DNA of 64,000 nucleotides from a virus (Duplodnaviria; Heunggongvirae; Uroviricota; Caudoviricetes). Below, piece after piece: positions 5,834 through 16,585 of the stretch. The stretch's first letter is position 1, and the number at the start of each line of letters is the position of its first letter. The notes below the pieces were generated by a model. That model did no database searches. It had not been told where the DNA came from and saw nothing but the letters and a program-made list of their open reading frames with translations. Location: positions 131,877-195,876 of the IMG/VR virus record IMGVR_UViG_3300028603_000019; one strand, 5' to 3'. The position numbers and the translations under genes are program-made.

Positions 5834-5934
5834 CATCTATTTCTCACAAAAGTGAACTACCTGGAAACTGAAGACTTGCCGGTTTTGGATCACGTCCTTA
5901 GATAAATAGATAGATAAAAATATAGGAGAATGTT

Positions 5935-6538: not shown

Positions 6539-6700
6539 TTATATCAATTCAATCTCAAAGTCCCTGCTTTCGGCTTTCTTTAGGAGTCTCTTGATTTCAA
6601 GGTTCATTCTACCGACAAGAAGTGGTTTCCTATACTTGGTAACGAAAATAATGTGAACCTTCAAGAAATATTTTCGATGATTCTTGCAAATATAGTCCAT
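6539..6700 (-). pseudogene. tnpA: Truncated IS200-type Y1 transposase (not in ORF track)
   Basis: Manual translation MDYICKNHRKYFLKVHIIFVTKYRKPLLVGRMNLEIKRLLKKAESRDFEIELI*. Contains the diagnostic HxxFVTKYR and stops just before the HUH motif. Confidence 0.88.
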
Positions 6701-6752: not shown

Positions 6753-8060
6753 GTGAGATTTTCTTCCTTGTCCATCATGGGTTTCAAATATCGGATCTAT
6801 CCAACACCTGAACAGAAAATTCTGTTCAAACAGGTATTTGGTAACTGTAGACTCCTATGGAATATGTTTCTTGACAAGGAAATGAAGGAATATCAGGCGA
6901 CCAAGAAATTCAACTGGTATCATGCAAATTCCAAGTGTCTTCCGGGTCTCAAGAAGCAGATGGAATTCCTGAAGATCGGTCCTTCTCAAGCATATCAGGC
7001 GGCTTTGATGGATCTTGATCAGGCTATCAAGAGGAAGTGCAAAGACAAGGCTGGAACTGGATTTCCAAAATTCAAACGCAAGAATATTTTTGAAAATGGA
7101 TTTCGTGTCGTTCAAACTCCTGATAAATGGAAATGGAACGAGGGTCATATTACTGTTCCAAAAATAGGCAACGTGAAATGGAAGCTGCACAGGGATATTC
7201 CATCAGGGTTCTCCACGGTGACAATTTCCCAAGACGGAACTGATTATTACATTAGTCTGGTAGTCGAGGTTCAGGATAATAGTCCAGTTTCTGATATCCA
7301 ATCCATGAACAATGTAATTGGCATTGATCTCAACTCCAACGATCTTGCGGTCACGTCTGACGGTGTTATCCACCAGAACCCAAAGTTCCTCAAGAAGGAC
7401 CGGAACAAGATCAAGCGGCGACAAAGACAACTGGCACGGGCACAAGCTGGATCCAATCGAAGGAAGAGACAACACCTTGCCGCCAGGAAGGCATATCGGG
7501 ATGTTTCCAGGAAGCGAAGGGACTTTTTGCACAAGCTATCGAGGGATTTCGTCTCCAACTATGACTTGATATGCCTTGAAGATTTGAATGTGAAGGGGAT
7601 GCAAAAGTTCAATGGAACCATGGTTGGTGATGCCGGATGGAGCACACTAGTCGGGATGATCGGCTACAAGGCTACTCAAGCGGGCAAACGTGTCATCAAG
7701 ATCAATCGTTGGGCACCAAGTTCAAAATGTTGTAACAATTGCGGGGAAGTGAAAGCCAAGCTTCCTACTCATATCAGGACCTATTCTTGTAATCATTGTG
7801 GAGTATCCCAATCGAGGGATATCAATGCCGCATTGAATATCAGGGATTGGGGACTTCAAGATTACCTATTGTCTACCGAATCATTTGATCCGGATTCGAG
7901 ACCAACTACCGGTGGGACGCCGGAAAGTCACGGACGGGGAGATACCTCTATCGGGGTTGGAGCGCAAGCTCCTGCTAGATATGTATCGTTGAATCGTCAA
8001 AAGTTCCTTGGCTCTCTTGTAGTGACCGAGGAAGCCTGGAAATCTTCAGTTTCCAGGTAG
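6753..8060 (+). CDS. tnpB: TnpB RNA-guided endonuclease (start may be ATG 6777)
   Basis: GFKYRIYPT N-terminus; RuvC I GIDLN, RuvC II LEDL, Zn finger CxxC..CxxC, RuvC III RDINAALNI; all three catalytic acidic residues present. Confidence 0.95.
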   Translation: MRFSSLSIMGFKYRIYPTPEQKILFKQVFGNCRLLWNMFLDKEMKEYQATKKFNWYHANSKCLPGLKKQMEFLKIGPSQAYQAALMDLDQAIKRKCKDKAGTGFPKFKRKNIFENGFRVVQTPDKWKWNEGHITVPKIGNVKWKLHRDIPSGFSTVTISQDGTDYYISLVVEVQDNSPVSDIQSMNNVIGIDLNSNDLAVTSDGVIHQNPKFLKKDRNKIKRRQRQLARAQAGSNRRKRQHLAARKAYRDVSRKRRDFLHKLSRDFVSNYDLICLEDLNVKGMQKFNGTMVGDAGWSTLVGMIGYKATQAGKRVIKINRWAPSSKCCNNCGEVKAKLPTHIRTYSCNHCGVSQSRDINAALNIRDWGLQDYLLSTESFDPDSRPTTGGTPESHGRGDTSIGVGAQAPARYVSLNRQKFLGSLVVTEEAWKSSVSR

Positions 8061-8085
8061 TTCACCGACCTGACTTTCAGTTAAT
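7870..8085 (+). ncRNA. Putative TnpB omegaRNA (reRNA) with ~20-nt guide CGACCTGACTTTCAGTTAAT at 8066-8085
   Basis: Overlaps the tnpB 3' end. Scaffold-like ACCGGTGGGACGCCGGAAAGTCACGGACGGGGAGA and TCGTTGAATCGTCAA, ending in the RE hairpin and GTAGTTCAC. 5' boundary approximate. Confidence 0.7.
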
Positions 8086-9520: not shown

Positions 9521-9535
9521 CCCCAAAATTATTTT

Positions 9536-9780
9536 CACTTTTCTTGATTTTCTGGCTTGACAGAAGCTGAAAACCCGGTATAATAAGGTTTAGGAACCGG
9601 GAAACCGTGAAGAAAGAATAATATACGTATCCTATTGCCCGATTCGGGCAACTCATATTGGTCAATTAGAATCGGACGGAGATCAAGATTCCAGGAAATC
9701 AAGAATCAGGAATATCAAGATCGAGGCGAAGCCTCATGGACGCCAGTCCATTGAATCAAGAAACCCGGAATTTCAAGATC
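9536..9780 (+). repeat. Dispersed promoter-led non-coding element, copy 1
   Basis: CACTTTTCTTGATTTTCTGGCTTGACA-N16-TATAAT; TCGGACGGAGATCAA (9672-9686); invariant 31-mer CGAGGCGAAGCCTCATGGACGCCAGTCCATT (9722-9752). Confidence 0.92.
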
Positions 9781-9807
9781 GTGTTATCATAGTGGGTGTG
9801 TGAAATT

Positions 9808-11658
9808 TCACACACCCTTTGTCACATCTTCCATCATGAATACCTTTCTCGGTTCACTGGAAGCTCCAAACATCATATCCAAGTATTGAATATCGTCCAG
9901 ATGGATCGTATCCATCACCGGATTATTGATCATGGAATCATATTCACTTTCATCGAGTGAACCGAGACCCTTGATATACCGATGATTGTAGCCCTTGGAT
10001 TCGTCCTTGAATTTGGCAGCCGCATCATACCCATAGAACCATTGAGTATCTTTGCCCTTCGATGAGATCATGATGGGTGACCGGACAATCTTGATCCTGT
10101 TTTCGGTGAACAGGCGTGGCCAAAACTTGGCGAAAAAAGCAACTAAAAGAGTCGCAATTTTTTCGCCATCACGATCTGCATCGGCCAGCACCCCAATATT
10201 CTTGTATGTGAGATCATCTACCGAATCAGGATCATTGATATTGAGACCCAGGACGCTGATCAGTTCCCCAAGTTCCTTATTCTTGAGGACGTCTGCTGCC
10301 TTCATGTTCCAGGTATTCATGACCACGCCACGGAGAGGATATGCTCCTACCATATTAGGATCACGAACCTTGAGAAGGAACCCGAGCGCAGATTGACCCT
10401 CTGTCAGGAACAACGTGGCATCTGGAGAATTGGCCGCGATGTGCTTGGCAACTTTGACTTTCTTCAATTTTTTCTGTGCGAGCCTGGCATCACGGGTTTC
10501 ATCGGCCAGTTTCTTCGCAAGCTGAGAAGCAATGATCGGGTCGATGATATCGGCCGATAGGAAAATTTTCTTGGCATAGAATACCAAGTCCTTGAGACCC
10601 GCAGCGTTGAAGTGTTCCTTCACTGCACCCTGGCTGTTGGTAAGACGCTCCTTTGTCTGGGAATCAAACTTTGGATTCTGAAAATTCTTAGCAAAGACCA
10701 CGAAGGAGAGACCGGACCTGATGGTAGACTTGGCCACCTCGATCTTGTGTTTCCTCTTGATCAGGCGGACCAGTTCTTCCACGATGGTATTGGAAATAAA
10801 GTCCACGTAGGCACCACCGAGGCGCGTGTTCACCCCGTTTACGTAGCAGTTGGGACGGAAACCGTCATTGGAACCCACAACGAAGAAGGACAGGTTCTCG
10901 GATGCCGCCATGACGACCGAACCACCTTCGTCAGTGAACATGGAAGCATAAGTCTTGAGATCCCGAACTTGGATCCGCTTCTTGTTGAAACTGAACTTCA
11001 CTTGTGGAAATGCCATCTGGAGGCCGATGAGCCGGTCTTCAAGAATCGCGAGGGTATCCTGCTCCTCCAGGGAGTCGACCTCAAAGAAGCTGAAGTCTGG
11101 AGTAAAAGTGACCTCGGTCCCGTGTCCCGACTTGGACACGACCTTGACATCAACCTTGTCGCCCCCATCGGAACAGATGACTTTCATCAACTTCCCATTC
11201 TGCCAGGTTCTTCCCTCGAATGTAGTGGACAGGAAGTTGGTAGCGGCCGATCCTAGACCATTGGCCCCGATGGAAACCCTGTCATCATCGAACGAGGTCC
11301 CCGCATTGACCTTTGTCCAGGCAGCGACAGGACGCGAAATCAGGTCACCGTTGTTAGCATCAAGGATTTCCTCGTGTGGAATTCCTCGTCCATTGTCGGT
11401 GATGGTGACTGTATTTCCGTTGATCGACACGTCGATACTATTCGCAAACTGGAATTGTGTCCTGATCGCTTCATCGATGGAGTTGTCGAGGATCTCATCT
11501 ATCATCTTGGTAAGGGCTGGGACGTAGGAGACTGTTCTCCATTTGCCCATCAAGAAACGCTCGACCGCTTCTAGTGATACACTCCCGAAATACATCCCTG
11601 TTCGCATACGAATGTGCTGTCTAGGGGTCAGGATCTGAAATTGTTCACGTGTGCTCAT
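9808..11658 (-). CDS. gp39: DNA topoisomerase II large subunit (gp39 plus fused gp60 domain)
   Basis: GHKL motifs EILDNSIDE, DNGRGIP, GANGLGS; FDSQTKERL; Toprim EGQSA and DADRDG; C-terminal RYIKGLGS. Confidence 0.95.
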   Translation of the reverse strand: MSTREQFQILTPRQHIRMRTGMYFGSVSLEAVERFLMGKWRTVSYVPALTKMIDEILDNSIDEAIRTQFQFANSIDVSINGNTVTITDNGRGIPHEEILDANNGDLISRPVAAWTKVNAGTSFDDDRVSIGANGLGSAATNFLSTTFEGRTWQNGKLMKVICSDGGDKVDVKVVSKSGHGTEVTFTPDFSFFEVDSLEEQDTLAILEDRLIGLQMAFPQVKFSFNKKRIQVRDLKTYASMFTDEGGSVVMAASENLSFFVVGSNDGFRPNCYVNGVNTRLGGAYVDFISNTIVEELVRLIKRKHKIEVAKSTIRSGLSFVVFAKNFQNPKFDSQTKERLTNSQGAVKEHFNAAGLKDLVFYAKKIFLSADIIDPIIASQLAKKLADETRDARLAQKKLKKVKVAKHIAANSPDATLFLTEGQSALGFLLKVRDPNMVGAYPLRGVVMNTWNMKAADVLKNKELGELISVLGLNINDPDSVDDLTYKNIGVLADADRDGEKIATLLVAFFAKFWPRLFTENRIKIVRSPIMISSKGKDTQWFYGYDAAAKFKDESKGYNHRYIKGLGSLDESEYDSMINNPVMDTIHLDDIQYLDMMFGASSEPRKVFMMEDVTKGV

Positions 11659-11728: not shown

Positions 11729-11962
11729 TCAACCCCTGCCGCGCTTCACGGCTTCACGCTCGGCCTTCCGAAATTCACGTCTGCGACGAGCGATGAGTTC
11801 GCGGGTGCTACGGCAGGCTTCGTTCCCGGGCAGTCCCGCGGGTTGGATCTTCGTGATCGGAAACCCATTTGCCAGGGCTTCATCGATGAGACGGTTGTTC
11901 GCGATATTGGAGGGCTCGTTCCGCATGTTGAGTCCACCATTTCCGGTAACACGAGCAGTCAT
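11729..11962 (-). CDS. Small basic hypothetical protein (start reassigned to MTARVTGNGG)
   Basis: AAAGGAG RBS 7 nt before ATG at 11962. Confidence 0.7.
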   Translation of the reverse strand: MTARVTGNGGLNMRNEPSNIANNRLIDEALANGFPITKIQPAGLPGNEACRSTRELIARRRREFRKAEREAVKRGRG

Positions 11963-12011
11963 TTCAAATCTCCTTTGGGGTTGGGTTGGAACACTCGAGG
12001 AAAGATGCTGA

Positions 12012-12167
12012 TTAGGCAGCCTTGCTGAAATGTTCCCGGGTCTGTTTCTGAAACTCCACTTTATCTTTGCGACGAACCGCTTTTTTGGTCTTTCCGTGAG
12101 CTCCCTGTTTCTTAGCGACGATGTGTTGCACGAAGGGATCACGAGGTTTGGGCAGTGGCCTTTTCAT
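12012..12167 (-). CDS. Basic 51-aa protein (not in ORF track)
   Basis: MKRPLPKPRDPFVQHIVAKKQGAHGKTKKAVRRKDKVEFQKQTREHFSKAA*; AAGGTG RBS; overlaps the end of the upstream gene. Confidence 0.65.
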   Translation of the reverse strand: MKRPLPKPRDPFVQHIVAKKQGAHGKTKKAVRRKDKVEFQKQTREHFSKAA

Positions 12168-12327
12168 TGGCATTCACCTTTCTGATCGCTTGCATCATGG
12201 AGTCCTTGACCAGATTATACCTGACACCACGAGGCAGGCTCATGTAGTCTTTGTATTCCTGGTCGGTCATTTCCTCAATGGCCCTGCGTTCCAGGGAATT
12301 CATCATAGCAAGGAACTGGGTCATCAT
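12139..12327 (-). CDS. Small hypothetical protein (start reassigned downstream of its promoter)
   Basis: The ORF-track N-terminus runs through the promoter at 12361-12389; GGAG precedes MMTQF. Confidence 0.6.
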   Translation of the reverse strand: MMTQFLAMMNSLERRAIEEMTDQEYKDYMSLPRGVRYNLVKDSMMQAIRKVNANEKATAQTS

Positions 12328-12360
12328 AGTCTTCGGTCTCCGTCTTGGCTTCTTGTATCC

Positions 12361-12389
12361 TTTATAGACCGGGGCGCGCCCGATGTAAA
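12361..12389 (-). promoter_or_regulatory. Sigma70-type promoter
   Basis: Minus strand TTTACA-N17-TATAAA, divergent from repeat copy 2. Confidence 0.7.
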
Positions 12390-12421
12390 CCATTATTTTC
12401 AATAAATGAGACGTGAATTTT

Positions 12422-12679
12422 CTCCACTTTTCTTGATTTTCTGGCTTGACACTACTGGAAAACCGTGGTATAATAAGGATGTCCCACCGGGAAATCGGGA
12501 AGGAGATAATGTATAGATCTTGATTATTCTTTACTTGGGCCGAATCACTGTATTAAGAATCGGACGGAAATCAAGATTCCAGGAAAATCAAGACTTGTAA
12601 AGAATCAGGTAATTACAGTGACGAGGCGAAGCCTCATGGACGCCAGTCCATTATGGAAGAAACTTGGAAAAATCAAGAA
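12422..12679 (+). repeat. Dispersed promoter-led non-coding element, copy 2
   Basis: CTCCACTTTTCTTGATTTTCTGGCTTGACA-N17-TATAAT (12446-12474); TCGGACGGAAATCAA (12560-12574); 31-mer at 12622-12652. Confidence 0.92.
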
Positions 12680-13183
12680 TCATAGTCTTCCAATCCTGAA
12701 GGTATCATACTGGAAGGTAACCGATGCCTCCGGATAGATCACGTCTTGTTGGGTAATGTCCAAACTTACATCTGATAAATTAATCGGAAAACAATTCGTA
12801 AAATTCAGCTCAATATTTGGGTTCTTCTTGCTATTCATGATCTGAAGTCTGATATCTGAATACAGACCTTCTTCTGATTCGTTGATATCCCGGAACTGTT
12901 CGTGGTTTTCCGGAAACGTGATGCCGACCATCCAGTTCCATATTTCCATGTAGTTGTTCATGTTCTCATCTATGATGAATGAGACTTCAAGATTGTTGTA
13001 TTGAAGCTGATCCGGTGTTGCCCAGACATTATTGAATCTGGTTGGTTGCAGGATAGGTGAGGCGGAGATACCCGGAACTGAAATTCTCTGCGTGAAAAAC
13101 TCGACATGCGGGATCCTCTTGATCGCAATGCGGAATTCAAGAGGGGAGAAATAATTTGGAAATGGTCCGGTCGGGCTGGTCAT
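12680..13183 (-). CDS. gp3: Tail completion / sheath stabiliser (tail-tube-like)
   Basis: NYFSPLEFR..IPHVEFFTQ..PGIS, FIIDENMNNYMEIWNW, FTNCFPINLS; position next to uvsY/uvsW. Confidence 0.85.
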   Translation of the reverse strand: MTSPTGPFPNYFSPLEFRIAIKRIPHVEFFTQRISVPGISASPILQPTRFNNVWATPDQLQYNNLEVSFIIDENMNNYMEIWNWMVGITFPENHEQFRDINESEEGLYSDIRLQIMNSKKNPNIELNFTNCFPINLSDVSLDITQQDVIYPEASVTFQYDTFRIGRL

Positions 13184-13242: not shown

Positions 13243-13710
13243 ATGAAATATATTTCAGATTCTACTGTGGGTCAATTCATCAGTGATAATCAATCAATTG
13301 TCCTTGACAGTGCAATTCGCGACACTCTGGGTTCTTGGGTAGAGGAAAATACAGAGGGTGGAATCTTAATTACCGGAACGCATTACGGTGGTATCATTAT
13401 TCAAATCAAAAACTCAGATATTATAACCCTAGGAACTCATGTGTGGACACCATCCATATTTGGATTTTCAAGTATGATAACATTTTGTCAAGATTCGGAT
13501 ACTACTATTCTGAATAAAATACTGCCAAGTCTTTTGGCATTTAATAGAAGTGTCCTTACAACTTCTTTTCGGGACGATAATGAAAAAAATATGTGGATTC
13601 AAGCCTGTGATATTATAGACAAAAAATATTTTGTATACCGTTCAAAGGGGAAAATTATTACAGAAAATGCAGATTTTGATGCCTTTTATATTACGGATGT
13701 TGAAAGATGA
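13243..13710 (+). CDS. Hypothetical protein
   Basis: AGGAGG RBS; AT-rich; CTAAATA overlaps the start. Confidence 0.65.
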   Translation: MKYISDSTVGQFISDNQSIVLDSAIRDTLGSWVEENTEGGILITGTHYGGIIIQIKNSDIITLGTHVWTPSIFGFSSMITFCQDSDTTILNKILPSLLAFNRSVLTTSFRDDNEKNMWIQACDIIDKKYFVYRSKGKIITENADFDAFYITDVER

Positions 13711-14312
13711 AAACATTACAGCAAATTTTAGCCGAATCTCCAGTAAGAATTAATTTCAGGACCAATCCTTATAGTGTCAATTTTGATGATCCTGTCATTA
13801 ATTCTGAAACCCTAGAAATGTGGTTATCTGAAAATATTCGGAGAATCAAGAAACTCGATACCAAACATAATCTTCTTGAATATACCAAGAAGGGTTCCAA
13901 ACACACGTTTGTACATAATCTAAATGATAATATGATAGACGCATTTGTTGTATGGTATCCGATAGTATCTCCTACAAAATCCTTGACAGTTTCATCTGCC
14001 TGGAGGAGAAAATCAAATCTTTTCATTTCAGATCCTATAGGATATCTCTATTTTGATTATCTGTTGCCCAAATACGGATCATTGAAATCTGACATCAGAC
14101 AAACTCCACATGGAGAAAAATTCTGGAAAGAGAAAATTCTTCCAAGAGCCGAGAAAGAAGGTCTTCATATAGGTCTTGTTAATGATAAGATACTGGAAGA
14201 ATGGAAATCTCCTAAAATACCTCTAAATGACTGGTTACGTGAAAAGGATGCCTGGGGAACGTCAAGACGACAAGAGGATATGAGTTTCATCATTTCCAAG
14301 AGGAAGTTCTGA
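13707..14312 (+). CDS. Hypothetical protein with T4 capsid-targeting-like N-terminus; possible internal head protein
   Basis: MKTLQQILAE resembles T4 CTS MKTYQEFIAE; SDxxQTxxGxxFW motif. Confidence 0.7.
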   Translation: MKTLQQILAESPVRINFRTNPYSVNFDDPVINSETLEMWLSENIRRIKKLDTKHNLLEYTKKGSKHTFVHNLNDNMIDAFVVWYPIVSPTKSLTVSSAWRRKSNLFISDPIGYLYFDYLLPKYGSLKSDIRQTPHGEKFWKEKILPRAEKEGLHIGLVNDKILEEWKSPKIPLNDWLREKDAWGTSRRQEDMSFIISKRKF

Positions 14313-14805: not shown

Positions 14806-16296
14806 GTGATGACCGAAAAAATTGAAATCCAACACTACAATGAAGTCTATGTTCGTGTGAAGGCGGACATGAGTATCCTCCAGGAACTCACGGAATTTTT
14901 CATGTTCCGTCCGGCCGGGTTTCAATTCACTCCCAAGTTCAAGGCCAAGATCTGGGACGGTTACATCAGGCTCATTTCTCCCCATAAGCCCATTATATAC
15001 AAGGGCCTGATTGGACACCTCAAAAAATTCTGTGAAGATCGTGACTATGAGATCGTGATCGAGGATGGTCTATTTCCGACAGAGGAAGTTCCAGACGACT
15101 ATGGCTTTGACTTTGCCAAGGAAATCAATGCCACCCTTGAACCGAGAGATTACCAGAACCAGTATTTCGTGACAGCACTCCGAGAGGGCAGAACACTGTC
15201 ACTATCTCCTACATCCTCTGGTAAAAGTTTCATCATCCATCTCATAGTCCAATATTATTGGCGAGTGATGGGACTTCGGACCCTGATCATCGTCCCCACG
15301 ACAGGATTGGTAGATCAGATGGTGGGAGACTTCAAGTCTTATGGAGCCGATCCTGATATGCTCTACAAGATCCGTGGTGGCATTGACAAGGAGACTGATC
15401 TTCCTGTTGTGGTGTCCACGTGGCAATCTTTGTATAAGATGCCTTCAGAATATTTTGATCGCTTCGGGGTTGTGATCGGGGACGAGGCTCATCTCTTTTC
15501 AGCGAAGTCTCTTGTCGGCATCCTAGAAAAGATGGAACACGCCAGGTTCCGCTTCGGCTTCACGGGAACCATTTCTTCGGAATCGAAAACTCATCAGCTC
15601 GTCTTACAGGGTCTGTTTGGCCCCCTTGTCCGCTATGTAAAAACCAAGGATCTCATCGAATCCGGAACGGTAGCTGACTTCAAGGTGAAGGCCATAGTCC
15701 TGAAATATCCACAGAGCATCGTGGATGGTTTCAAGGCTGGACTTTCCAAAGTCAAGAAGGAAAAGAGGTACCACACCGAACGTGAATTTTTGGTTTCCAA
15801 CACCCGAAGGAATACCTTCATAAGAAACCTGGTCTGGTCACTGAAGGATCAGAATAATTTGATCCTCTTTGACTTGGTAGAGAAGCACGGAAAAGTCCTG
15901 AAAGAACTATTTGAAACTGAAGGTCGTATTCTTCATTTCATGACAGGAGCATCCTCAGTTGAGGAACGCGAATCGGTAAGGCACACCGTAGAAGATGATC
16001 CTCTCAAGAGACATGATATCCTGGCATCATATCAGTTATTCTCAACCGGTGTGAATATCAAGAGACTTGATAACGTAATATTCGCATCAGGATCACAATC
16101 TGAAATCAGGGTTCTTCAGAGTATTGGCAGAACCCTGAGGAAAGGGAATGGATCGGATAATGCCACATTGTATGATATCGGGGATGATTTGAGTAAGGGA
16201 TCATATACCAACTATACCATGAAGCACATGGAAAAGAGGTTGGAGATTTATGCTTCAGAAGGGTTCCCATTCAAGATATTCAAGGTTGATCTTTGA
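14806..16296 (+). CDS. uvsW: SF2 DNA helicase UvsW
   Basis: WDGYIRL, PRDYQ, SPTSSGKS, GDEAH, FSTGVNIK, QSIGRTLR. Confidence 0.96.
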   Translation: MMTEKIEIQHYNEVYVRVKADMSILQELTEFFMFRPAGFQFTPKFKAKIWDGYIRLISPHKPIIYKGLIGHLKKFCEDRDYEIVIEDGLFPTEEVPDDYGFDFAKEINATLEPRDYQNQYFVTALREGRTLSLSPTSSGKSFIIHLIVQYYWRVMGLRTLIIVPTTGLVDQMVGDFKSYGADPDMLYKIRGGIDKETDLPVVVSTWQSLYKMPSEYFDRFGVVIGDEAHLFSAKSLVGILEKMEHARFRFGFTGTISSESKTHQLVLQGLFGPLVRYVKTKDLIESGTVADFKVKAIVLKYPQSIVDGFKAGLSKVKKEKRYHTEREFLVSNTRRNTFIRNLVWSLKDQNNLILFDLVEKHGKVLKELFETEGRILHFMTGASSVEERESVRHTVEDDPLKRHDILASYQLFSTGVNIKRLDNVIFASGSQSEIRVLQSIGRTLRKGNGSDNATLYDIGDDLSKGSYTNYTMKHMEKRLEIYASEGFPFKIFKVDL

Positions 16297-16520
16297 TTTC
16301 CGTCCGACCCTGAATCAATGGACTGGCGTCCATGAGGCTTCGCCTCGTCCCTGTAATTACATGATTCTTGATTTTCCTAGATTCATATAGACAGTGATTC
16401 GGCCCCAAAAAGAATAATCAAGACCTAATACATTATCTCCTTCCCGATTTCCCGGTGGGACATCCTTATTTTACCACGGTTTTCCAGTAGTGTCAAGCCA
16501 GAAAATCAAGAAAAGTGGAG
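16293..16520 (-). repeat. Dispersed promoter-led non-coding element, copy 3 (inverted)
   Basis: Minus strand TTGACA-N17-TAAAAT (16496-16468); 31-mer at 16317-16347; TCGGACGGAAATCAA module at 16293-16307; first ~90 nt almost identical to copy 2. Confidence 0.92.
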
Positions 16521-16585
16521 ATTATTTTGGGCCAAATCATGGTCCTAATAACCATCACTTTCTGAAATCAAAACCCAAACAGTGG

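Follow-up and report, generated by a model that had tools for sequence, protein, structure and literature searches.

An invariant 31-nt double hairpin in four promoter-led non-coding units of an uncultured T4-type phage

Introduction

To our knowledge, a family of abundant early regulatory RNAs has not been described from T4-type phages, which are the best studied of the large phages. Sibling and sponge sRNAs are well represented by Qrr1–5, which share an invariant core of about 32 nt, and by CsrB, RsmY and RsmZ, in which short protein-binding motifs are repeated. Structured elements within phage transcripts include the put element of HK022, which is about 65–70 nt long and consists of two irregular stem-loops larger than those considered here, and lambda nut, whose boxB hairpin has a GNRA-like pentaloop.

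The replication origins of phage T4 are multiple and often located at strand switches, and those of the R-loop type need no specific sequence (PMC3016281). The origin oriE consists of an early-mode promoter and a cluster of 12-nt iterons at even spacing; in oriF and oriG a promoter is combined with an A+T-rich unwinding element, and priming is by an R-loop (PMC3016281). Origin R-loops are unwound by the UvsW protein, which in T4 is made only late (PMC3016281). Another kind of repeated early element in T4-type phages is the promoter-early stem-loop cassette, or PeSL (Arbiol et al., 2010, PMC2839356; Comeau et al., 2014, PMC4122927). Each PeSL is a short composite of a terminator and a promoter, many copies being found in hyperplastic regions adjacent to ORFans, and near-consensus promoter cassettes of this kind drive modular shuffling in T4-type phages (PMC2839356, PMC4122927). 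Lastly, DNA mini-hairpin sites are found in the complementary-strand origins of G4, St-1 and alpha3, in ssiA of RSF1010 and in the virion-RNA polymerase promoters of N4 (PMC13037366).

The first-pass annotation of a 64,000-nt stretch of phage DNA, the whole of which is referred to here as the window, drew attention to a 31-nt sequence that contains the GCGAAGC mini-hairpin and is repeated within otherwise divergent surroundings. It was proposed to be a sequence-specific recognition site, probably on single-stranded DNA (for a primase, a helicase loader or an HUH protein), or alternatively a protein-binding module in RNA. The background given there, of d(GCGAAGC) as a stable mini-hairpin of some phage origins and promoters, is correct, such mini-hairpins being known from G4-type origins, ssiA and N4 promoters (PMC13037366).

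The phage genome

The window covers bases 131877–195876 of a 210,571-bp IMG/VR virus record (IMGVR_UViG_3300028603_000019), which is rated 100% complete and has a GC content of 47%. The genome is that of a divergent, uncultured T4-type phage. Its closest cultured relatives are cyanomyoviruses, with about 45% identity in UvsW, and its closest uncultured relatives show about 60–66% identity in the same protein. The whole of the finding concerns four paralogs in this one uncultured genome. Based upon PHROG and Pfam matches, the neighboring genes encode topoisomerase II subunits (gp52- and gp39-like), a gp19-like tail-tube protein, UvsY, UvsW and the gp55 late sigma factor, and the presence of gp55 suggests that the phage uses the host RNA polymerase. 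RegA and a two-piece tmRNA are also encoded by the phage, and neither CsrA nor Hfq was found in its genome.

Four promoter-led non-coding units

The 31-nt sequence (CGAGGCGAAGCCTCATGGACGCCAGTCCATT) is not a free-standing site; each copy is the core of a larger promoter-led non-coding unit of about 250–330 nt. This larger unit had been missed in the first-pass annotation. The 31-mer is one of two invariant blocks within it, the other being a 27-nt UP/-35 block (CACTTTTCTTGATTTTCTGGCTTGACA). The four units are designated A to D, and their features are as follows (window positions, except for unit D).

9527–9822, plus strand: unit A (copy alignment; nhmmer E 8e-79; flanks by PHROG/Pfam)
9536–9562, plus strand: unit A, invariant 27-nt UP/-35 block (27/27 in all pairs)
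9557–9584, plus strand: unit A, sigma70 promoter, 12/12, TTGACA-N16-TATAAT (promoter scan)
9678–9721, plus strand: unit A, tandem 15–16-nt modules GGAAATCAAGATTCA, 2.8 copies (Tandem Repeats Finder, module scan)
9722–9752, plus strand: 31-nt double hairpin, copy A (exact match)
9753–9780, plus strand: unit A, further module copies (module scan)
9794–9822, plus strand: unit A, intrinsic terminator (sequence, fold)
12416–12700, plus strand: unit B (copy alignment, nhmmer, module scan)
12425–12451, plus strand: unit B, invariant block
12446–12474, plus strand: unit B, promoter (12/12)
12516–12530: unit B, inverted module
12565–12596 and 12664–12681: unit B, modules
12622–12652, plus strand: 31-nt double hairpin, copy B (exact match)
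16288–16526, minus strand: unit C (copy alignment, nhmmer, module scan)
16517–16491, minus strand: unit C, invariant block
16496–16468, minus strand: unit C, promoter (11/12, TAAAAT)
16380–16363 and 16301–16288, minus strand: unit C, modules
16317–16347, minus strand: 31-nt double hairpin, copy C (exact match)
Genome 4095–3700, minus strand: unit D (copy alignment)

The three copies within the window are thus exact, as had been reported, and no match was obtained in 100 shuffles. Further copies of the 31-mer with up to three mismatches were not found in the window; a search of the whole genome revealed the fourth copy, D, at G000:C1:3818-3846(-), 138 kb away. The 27-nt block occurs exactly four times in the genome, once in each unit. 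The only three 12/12 sigma70 promoters of the 210-kb genome are those of units A, B and D, and the promoter of unit C matches at 11 of the 12 positions. In all four units the 31-mer has the same orientation and lies about 135–215 nt 3' of the start implied by the promoter.

Unit A is located between the topoisomerase II subunit genes and is transcribed against them. Its terminator consists of a 10-bp stem (GGGTGTGTGA/TCACACACCC) with an AATT loop and a TTTGT tail; it is specific to the sense strand and overlaps the stop codon of the convergent topoisomerase gene. A recognizable terminator is present only in this unit (1/4), and none was found nearby in units B, C and D. Unit B extends into the 3' end of the convergent gp19-like tail-tube gene, and unit C fills the spacer between uvsW and gp55, where it is antisense to uvsW. 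Units A, B and C converge on the topoisomerase large subunit gene, the tail-tube paralog and uvsW, respectively, and unit D leads into co-directional small ORFs. The uvsW stop codon (16294–16296, plus strand) falls inside the last module of unit C (16288–16301, minus strand), which reads TTGATTTCC on the plus strand.

No conserved ORF is present in the units. An ATG within the second hairpin of the 31-mer, with GAGG 9 nt upstream in the first hairpin, opens frames of 17–33 codons in all four copies (9735–9791, 12635–12736 and 16334–16281(-) in the window; L004 1516–1463(-) for copy D). A coding reading of these frames was rejected: they begin inside hairpin 2 as MDASPL..., have only MD(A/V)SPL in common and diverge after six codons. 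The Shine-Dalgarno-like GAGG and the AUG are both sequestered within the hairpins. Another mini-ORF, MYRS*, is present in units B and D and was discarded as it is absent from unit A.

The topoisomerase and uvsW genes are separated by 3.1 kb in this phage and by only about 1.2 kb in one of the relatives (IMGVR_UViG_3300023110_000040), and the interval has the appearance of a zone of lineage-specific insertions. Four small ORFs (87, 137, 155 and 201 aa) are found around unit B, at 11729–12402 (-) and 13243–14312 (+). They were considered as a possible source of a partner protein, but no Pfam or informative PHROG match was detected for any of these four ORFs, the 201-aa ORF matching only a PHROG of unknown function.

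Structure and invariance of the 31-nt sequence

The 31-mer folds as it was originally drawn, into two abutting hairpins, GAGGC-GAA-GCCTC with a 5-bp stem and a GAA loop, and ATGGAC-GCCA-GTCCAT with a 6-bp stem and a loop that is GYCA across the copies. Copy D differs from the others solely in loop 2, where GCCA is replaced by GTCA. The MFE is -15.2 kcal/mol as RNA (z -4.9) and -8.8 kcal/mol as DNA (z -4.4), with comparable figures for the complement; two perfect hairpins abutting within 31 nt are very improbable by chance. The feature is real and non-random. Due to the absence of a U-tract (the bases 3' of the 31-mer are TTGA or TTAT) and the presence in unit A of a separate canonical terminator 42 nt further on, it is not an ordinary intrinsic terminator, in agreement with the first-pass annotation.

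The two invariant blocks are set within sequences that have diverged to different extents. The promoter block is identical (27/27) in all pairs of units, and the 31-mer shows 31/31 identity, or 30/31 in the pairs involving D. The leader between the promoter and the 31-mer is 58% identical between A and B, 49% between A and C and 40% between A and D, and it shows 51–72% identity among B, C and D, so that the flanks diverge as had been stated. The 3' flanks are 43–46% identical except for those of C and D (93%), and the 5' 100 nt of units B, C and D are 97–100% identical. On the 58% background observed between A and B, the probability of 31 straight identities is about 5e-8. No change, compensated or otherwise, is seen at any stem position, the one difference among the paralogs being a loop base, and covariation support for the two hairpins was not found among these four copies. 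As both the stems and the loops are invariant where the flanks have diverged by 40–60%, and as compensatory changes are absent, base-specific recognition fits these observations better than does a purely structural hairpin. The sequence specificity originally suggested for this site is in this respect well founded. The invariance suggests that the sequence itself is recognized, or else that gene conversion has been very local, and it probably reflects more than recent duplication.

The complete unit transcripts fold better than shuffled sequences (z about -3), and the antisense strand folds equally well. A small GNRA-loop hairpin lies near the predicted transcript start, with the sequence CGG-GAAA-CCG in unit A and CCGG-GAAA-UCGG in the other three. 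Its closing base pair is G-C in unit A versus G.U in units B, C and D, a change that preserves the pairing in RNA only. The sense strand of the units contains more G than C and only 17–20% C, which should make it a poor substrate for Rho. All four units contain a stretch of 75–80% A+T at about +25 to +55, which is a short region in a part of the genome with 39–42% GC. Purine skew was considered as an R-loop signature and rejected, since 7–22% of genome windows are equally skewed.

Repeated modules and mosaic organization

In addition to the invariant blocks, each unit contains two to five copies of a 15–16-nt module (GGAAAATCAAGAWTC), whose number and order differ between the units. In unit A they include a tandem array of period 16 at 9678–9721, which was detected by Tandem Repeats Finder. 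The core of the module, AATCAAGA, shows an enrichment of about 90-fold in the units, whose 1.3 kb contain 15 of the 39 copies present in the genome. An inverted copy of AATCAAGA is held by the invariant 27-nt block, in the untranscribed region from -57 to -36, and units B, C and D have a second inverted module copy early in the leader. A GGACGGA block (TCGGACGGAAATCAA) precedes the 31-mer in A and B and follows it in C and D, and it lies within a different stem each time; this exchange of position indicates that the units are modular. The trinucleotide GGA occurs 35 times in the units against 19.8 expected (1.8-fold), with mixed accessibility.

Units B and C also form inverted repeats, one of 99 nt (12416–12514 and 16428–16526, 97%) and one of 53 nt (12600–12652 and 16317–16369, 96%). 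These face each other across a 3.7-kb segment that carries the gp19-like gene, two ORFans, uvsY and uvsW, and they constitute a ready substrate for inversion or conversion. As the gene order matches that in relatives, no inversion between B and C has taken place in this assembly.

Comparison with described systems

The units have features in common with several described systems. Similar to the Qrr- and CsrB-type sRNAs, they comprise several paralogous non-coding genes, each with a strong promoter, in which an invariant core lies within a divergent body and short motifs vary in number and order. However, there is no homology to these sRNAs, and the core of the units is fully self-paired and leaves no free seed. 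The repeated motif (GGAAAAUCAAGA) is longer than that of the CsrB type and is not a plain GGA loop, the enrichment of GGA being only 1.8-fold. Sibling sRNAs are discrete RNAs that start and end at a promoter and a terminator of their own; all four units have promoters, and a clear terminator is present in only one of them. A CsrA sponge has little support, as no CsrA was found in the phage genome and the 1.8-fold GGA enrichment is modest. A RegA decoy was likewise set aside: RegA is encoded by the phage, but the module appears dissimilar to RegA sites.

In common with T4 oriE, the units have direct repeats behind an early promoter, and their short A+T-rich stretch may correspond to the unwinding element of oriF and oriG; like the T4 origins they are dispersed, number several per genome and are found near strand switches and replication genes. 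They differ in having common invariant blocks, whereas the T4 origins share no sequence with each other, and their repeat period is 15–16 nt versus 12 in oriE. No origin signal was seen at the units in the cumulative GC skew. The resemblance to PeSLs lies in the repeated, near-perfect sigma70 early promoters (12/12, 12/12, 11/12 and 12/12 in A to D) within a T4-type genome, and in the units being long and similar enough to serve as recombination substrates. However, there are only four units, located among core replication genes and each with a non-coding leader of 200–270 nt, and inspection of the four copies revealed no shared stem-loop upstream of the invariant block. A strict PeSL identity was therefore rejected.

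Hairpin 1 is of the GCGAAGC type with a GNA loop, and its stem of 5 bp with three purines in the loop matches the architecture of the early promoter hairpins of N4. The described mini-hairpin systems involve single-stranded DNA templates and dedicated enzymes (DnaG, RepB' and the N4 vRNAP), in contrast to a dsDNA T4-type phage that uses host RNA polymerase and gp55. No match to PF00940 (single-subunit RNA polymerase) was found in the genome, the control genomes giving no match either, and with gp55 present an N4-type hairpin promoter is unlikely and unsupported. The suggestion of an HUH protein site does not hold, because the only candidate in the genome is a Y1 transposase remnant, a 53-aa frame at 6548–6670 (-) that matches only positions 3–42 of the Y1 (IS200/IS605 TnpA) profile. 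This remnant adjoins a 435-aa TnpB-like ORF at 6753–8060, and the IS605 end hairpins (end repeats at 5852–5885 and 8032–8065) are unrelated to the 31-mer. Lastly, the hairpins resemble HK022 put and lambda nut in being situated in a leader past early promoters and, in unit A, 5' of a terminator, but neither element matches the 31-mer in sequence or size.

Distribution of the units and their promoters in related phages

The unit family is an orphan in the collections that were searched. A pattern for the 31-mer with loop 2 left free had no match in IMG/VR, in metagenome contigs or in 185,000 genomes, and the 16 and 19 matches to its two half-patterns were all in unrelated contexts where the partner hairpin, the promoter and the modules were lacking. 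A scan with the promoter block pattern gave one chance match, inside coding DNA, and that with a pair of modules gave none. Nothing was found by blastn against GenBank phages, or by fuzzy matching and nhmmer against 160 loci of relatives. A covariance model run over three complete relatives returned only noise, its best match lying inside a 407-aa ORF. In Rfam 15, the gathering scan of the window identified only the tmRNA, and a permissive scan of the four unit loci gave one noise match (E 4.1). For unit D, the neighboring 247-aa gene has no relatives in IMG/VR, and locus L202 is not syntenic with it.

The promoter of unit C has a wider distribution. Among 30 related loci (IMG/VR contigs with enough flank, in which the uvsW–gp55 spacer is 87–200 nt), a perfect 12/12 promoter antisense to uvsW is present in this spacer in 27, and two more have a promoter with 1–2 mismatches; about 4e-5 perfect promoters would be expected per spacer by chance. 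These promoters (loci L006–L083, e.g., L009:7711-7779, L018:9480-9548 and L022:9478-9546) have the form TTGACA-N16-18-TATAAT and are usually paired with a divergent gp55 promoter. In view of its presence in 27 of the 30 relatives, antisense early transcription at the uvsW site appears to be conserved, and the spacer promoter looks like that of a conserved early anti-uvsW transcript. In the relatives such a transcript would enter the 3' end of uvsW directly, with no long leader. As they keep the antisense promoter without the leader, unit C seems to occupy an ancestral promoter site, and its leader of about 200 nt, with the modules and the 31-mer, appears to be lineage-specific and peculiar to this phage. 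In many of the relatives' loci, a conserved (T)TTATC word with short complementary arms is found near the predicted start, the arms being poorly aligned.

An antisense promoter after the topoisomerase gene was not found in the relatives. The three complete relatives contain 7–15 perfect promoters each, some leading into ORFs and some of the antisense type, and a repeat-bearing leader was not found behind any of them.

Interpretation of the units

The interpretation that we favor, with a probability of roughly 0.45 and hence somewhat short of even odds, is that the 31-mer is a sequence-specifically recognized RNA double hairpin, which anchors a factor on multivalent immediate-early non-coding RNAs. 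According to this proposal, the host sigma70 RNA polymerase would make four immediate-early non-coding transcripts from the strongest consensus promoters of the genome, and the 31-mer in these RNAs would fold into its two abutting hairpins and be read base-specifically by a protein. The flanking modules (GGAAAAUCAAGAWUC), in two to five copies, may provide a multivalent binding platform or sponge; their variable number and order, in combination with an invariant structured core, suggest a protein-binding platform rather than a fixed fold. If such RNAs were abundant from the very beginning of an infection, in its first minutes, they would bind or titrate a factor of either host or phage origin, and three of the four would also read antisense into the neighboring gene. 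We infer that the units are transcribed, that RNA rather than DNA is active and that the ligand is a protein.

Of the two forms of recognition site that the first-pass annotation had offered, the RNA module is favored by the context over the single-stranded DNA site to which it gave preference, although for a primase or helicase-loader site as such the observations are neutral. The 31-mer has a fixed orientation, 135–215 nt past a consensus start, behind the strongest host-type promoters and in units with no coding potential. The sense-strand terminator of unit A, the RNA-type G.U/G-C change in the start hairpin and the C-poor, G>C strand point in the same direction. Against an RNA element, one inverted module copy lies between -57 and -36, a region that is not transcribed and is itself invariant, and this points to a DNA-binding factor. 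In addition, the 31-mer folds equally well as DNA and the antisense strand of the units folds as well as the sense strand. The single recognizable terminator among the four units, the modest enrichment of GGA, the ordinary purine skew and the lack of CsrA and Hfq genes in the phage also count against it.

We consider it rather doubtful that the units represent a previously unseen immediate-early class behind the strongest promoters of the phage, consisting either of multivalent decoy RNAs or of sequence-defined, iteron-bearing R-loop origins. As decoy RNAs, their 31-nt double hairpin would be a high-affinity anchor that captures a host factor early; as R-loop origins, the DNA mini-hairpin on the displaced strand would act as a loading signal. 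Either would be a first for T4-type phages.

That the units are R-loop replication origins similar to T4 oriE is, in our assessment, improbable, although it is the form in which the earlier idea of a single-stranded DNA site survives. In such an origin the primer transcript from the early promoter would stay hybridized to the template and the 15–16-bp repeats would be iterons for an initiator or accessory protein, while the displaced strand would fold into the d(GCGAAGC) double hairpin, which holds the bubble open or marks the site of helicase or primase loading. The early promoter, the 75–80% A+T stretch at about +25 to +55 and the 15–16-bp direct repeats are all consistent with this, as are the location of the units among replication and recombination genes (topoisomerase II, UvsY, UvsW) and that of units B and D at strand-switch points. 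Module copies are found on both strands, including one in the part of the promoter region that is not transcribed. The strand that an R-loop would displace, the non-template strand, carries the GCGAAGC mini-hairpin, which is far more stable as DNA than as RNA (PMC13037366). However, as R-loop origins of T4 need no specific sequence, an invariant 31-mer would be unexpected. Further, the cumulative GC skew follows gene orientation with no extremum at the units, an iteron-binding initiator has not been identified and the role of iterons is unproven even in T4, and the relatives keep no more than the bare promoter at the uvsW site.

It is similarly unlikely that the units are cis-acting leaders of early sense or antisense ("anti-late") transcripts, in which the double hairpin would be an RNA stability or processing element. 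It might act as an RNase site, as an antitermination signal of the put or nut kind, or as a barrier to 3' exonucleases that defines the 3' end of the mature RNA, and the transcripts would persist or read into their neighbors, for example to restrain premature expression of uvsW. In T4, UvsW is made late and unwinds R-loops, and silencing of uvsW early in infection would for this reason be rational. The antisense promoter shared by 27 of 30 related phages, whose exact site is occupied by unit C, agrees with this explanation, and the relatives have other antisense-type early promoters too. The orientation of the units is also in accord with it, A, B and C being convergent with the downstream gene and D leading into co-directional ORFs, and two GC-rich hairpins without a U-tract resemble an exonuclease barrier. 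However, it is structure and not sequence that matters in a stabilizer, and compensatory changes are absent although the flanks have diverged heavily; unit A also terminates before entering its neighbor. This explanation also leaves the repeated modules unaccounted for, and the relatives do without such a leader.

Lastly, it is very unlikely that the 31-mer has no function of its own and that the units are PeSL-like mobile promoter cassettes homogenized by gene conversion, with the hairpins incidental, for although the near-identical 5' ends of B, C and D, the B/C inverted repeats, the mosaic make-up with blocks shuffled between units and the lack of any homolog outside of this genome in the collections searched all fit mobile cassettes, conversion would need to be confined to these 31 nt in every one of the four units and to stop short of the adjacent bases, the perfect double hairpin (z -4.4 to -4.9) and its 31 straight identities between A and B are both improbable by chance, and the units are without the upstream stem-loop that defines PeSLs.

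In this phage, all of the perfect host-type promoters present in 210 kb belong to non-coding units that combine an invariant structured core with repeated modules. At about 300 bp, such a unit is a small test object for two questions, namely whether host factors are countered by decoy RNAs in T4-like phages and whether an R-loop origin can be specified by a defined hairpin and iterons. The anti-uvsW promoter, which is conserved across this marine T4-like clade, provides a clue to an early restraint of the R-loop helicase.

Other early promoters in this genome and in a relative

In a related 183-kb phage (G003:C1), two identical perfect promoters are located 94 nt apart, at 174958–174985 and 175052–175079, and are a tandem promoter duplication. 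In the genome studied here, a second family of near-consensus early promoters is present outside of the window, at G000:C1 59176(-), 62877(-) and 73103(-). Its members have in common the word TTTCGGG(GG) immediately 5' of TTGACA, by which they are distinct from the promoters of the units, and they are located in the tRNA/small-RNA region of the genome.
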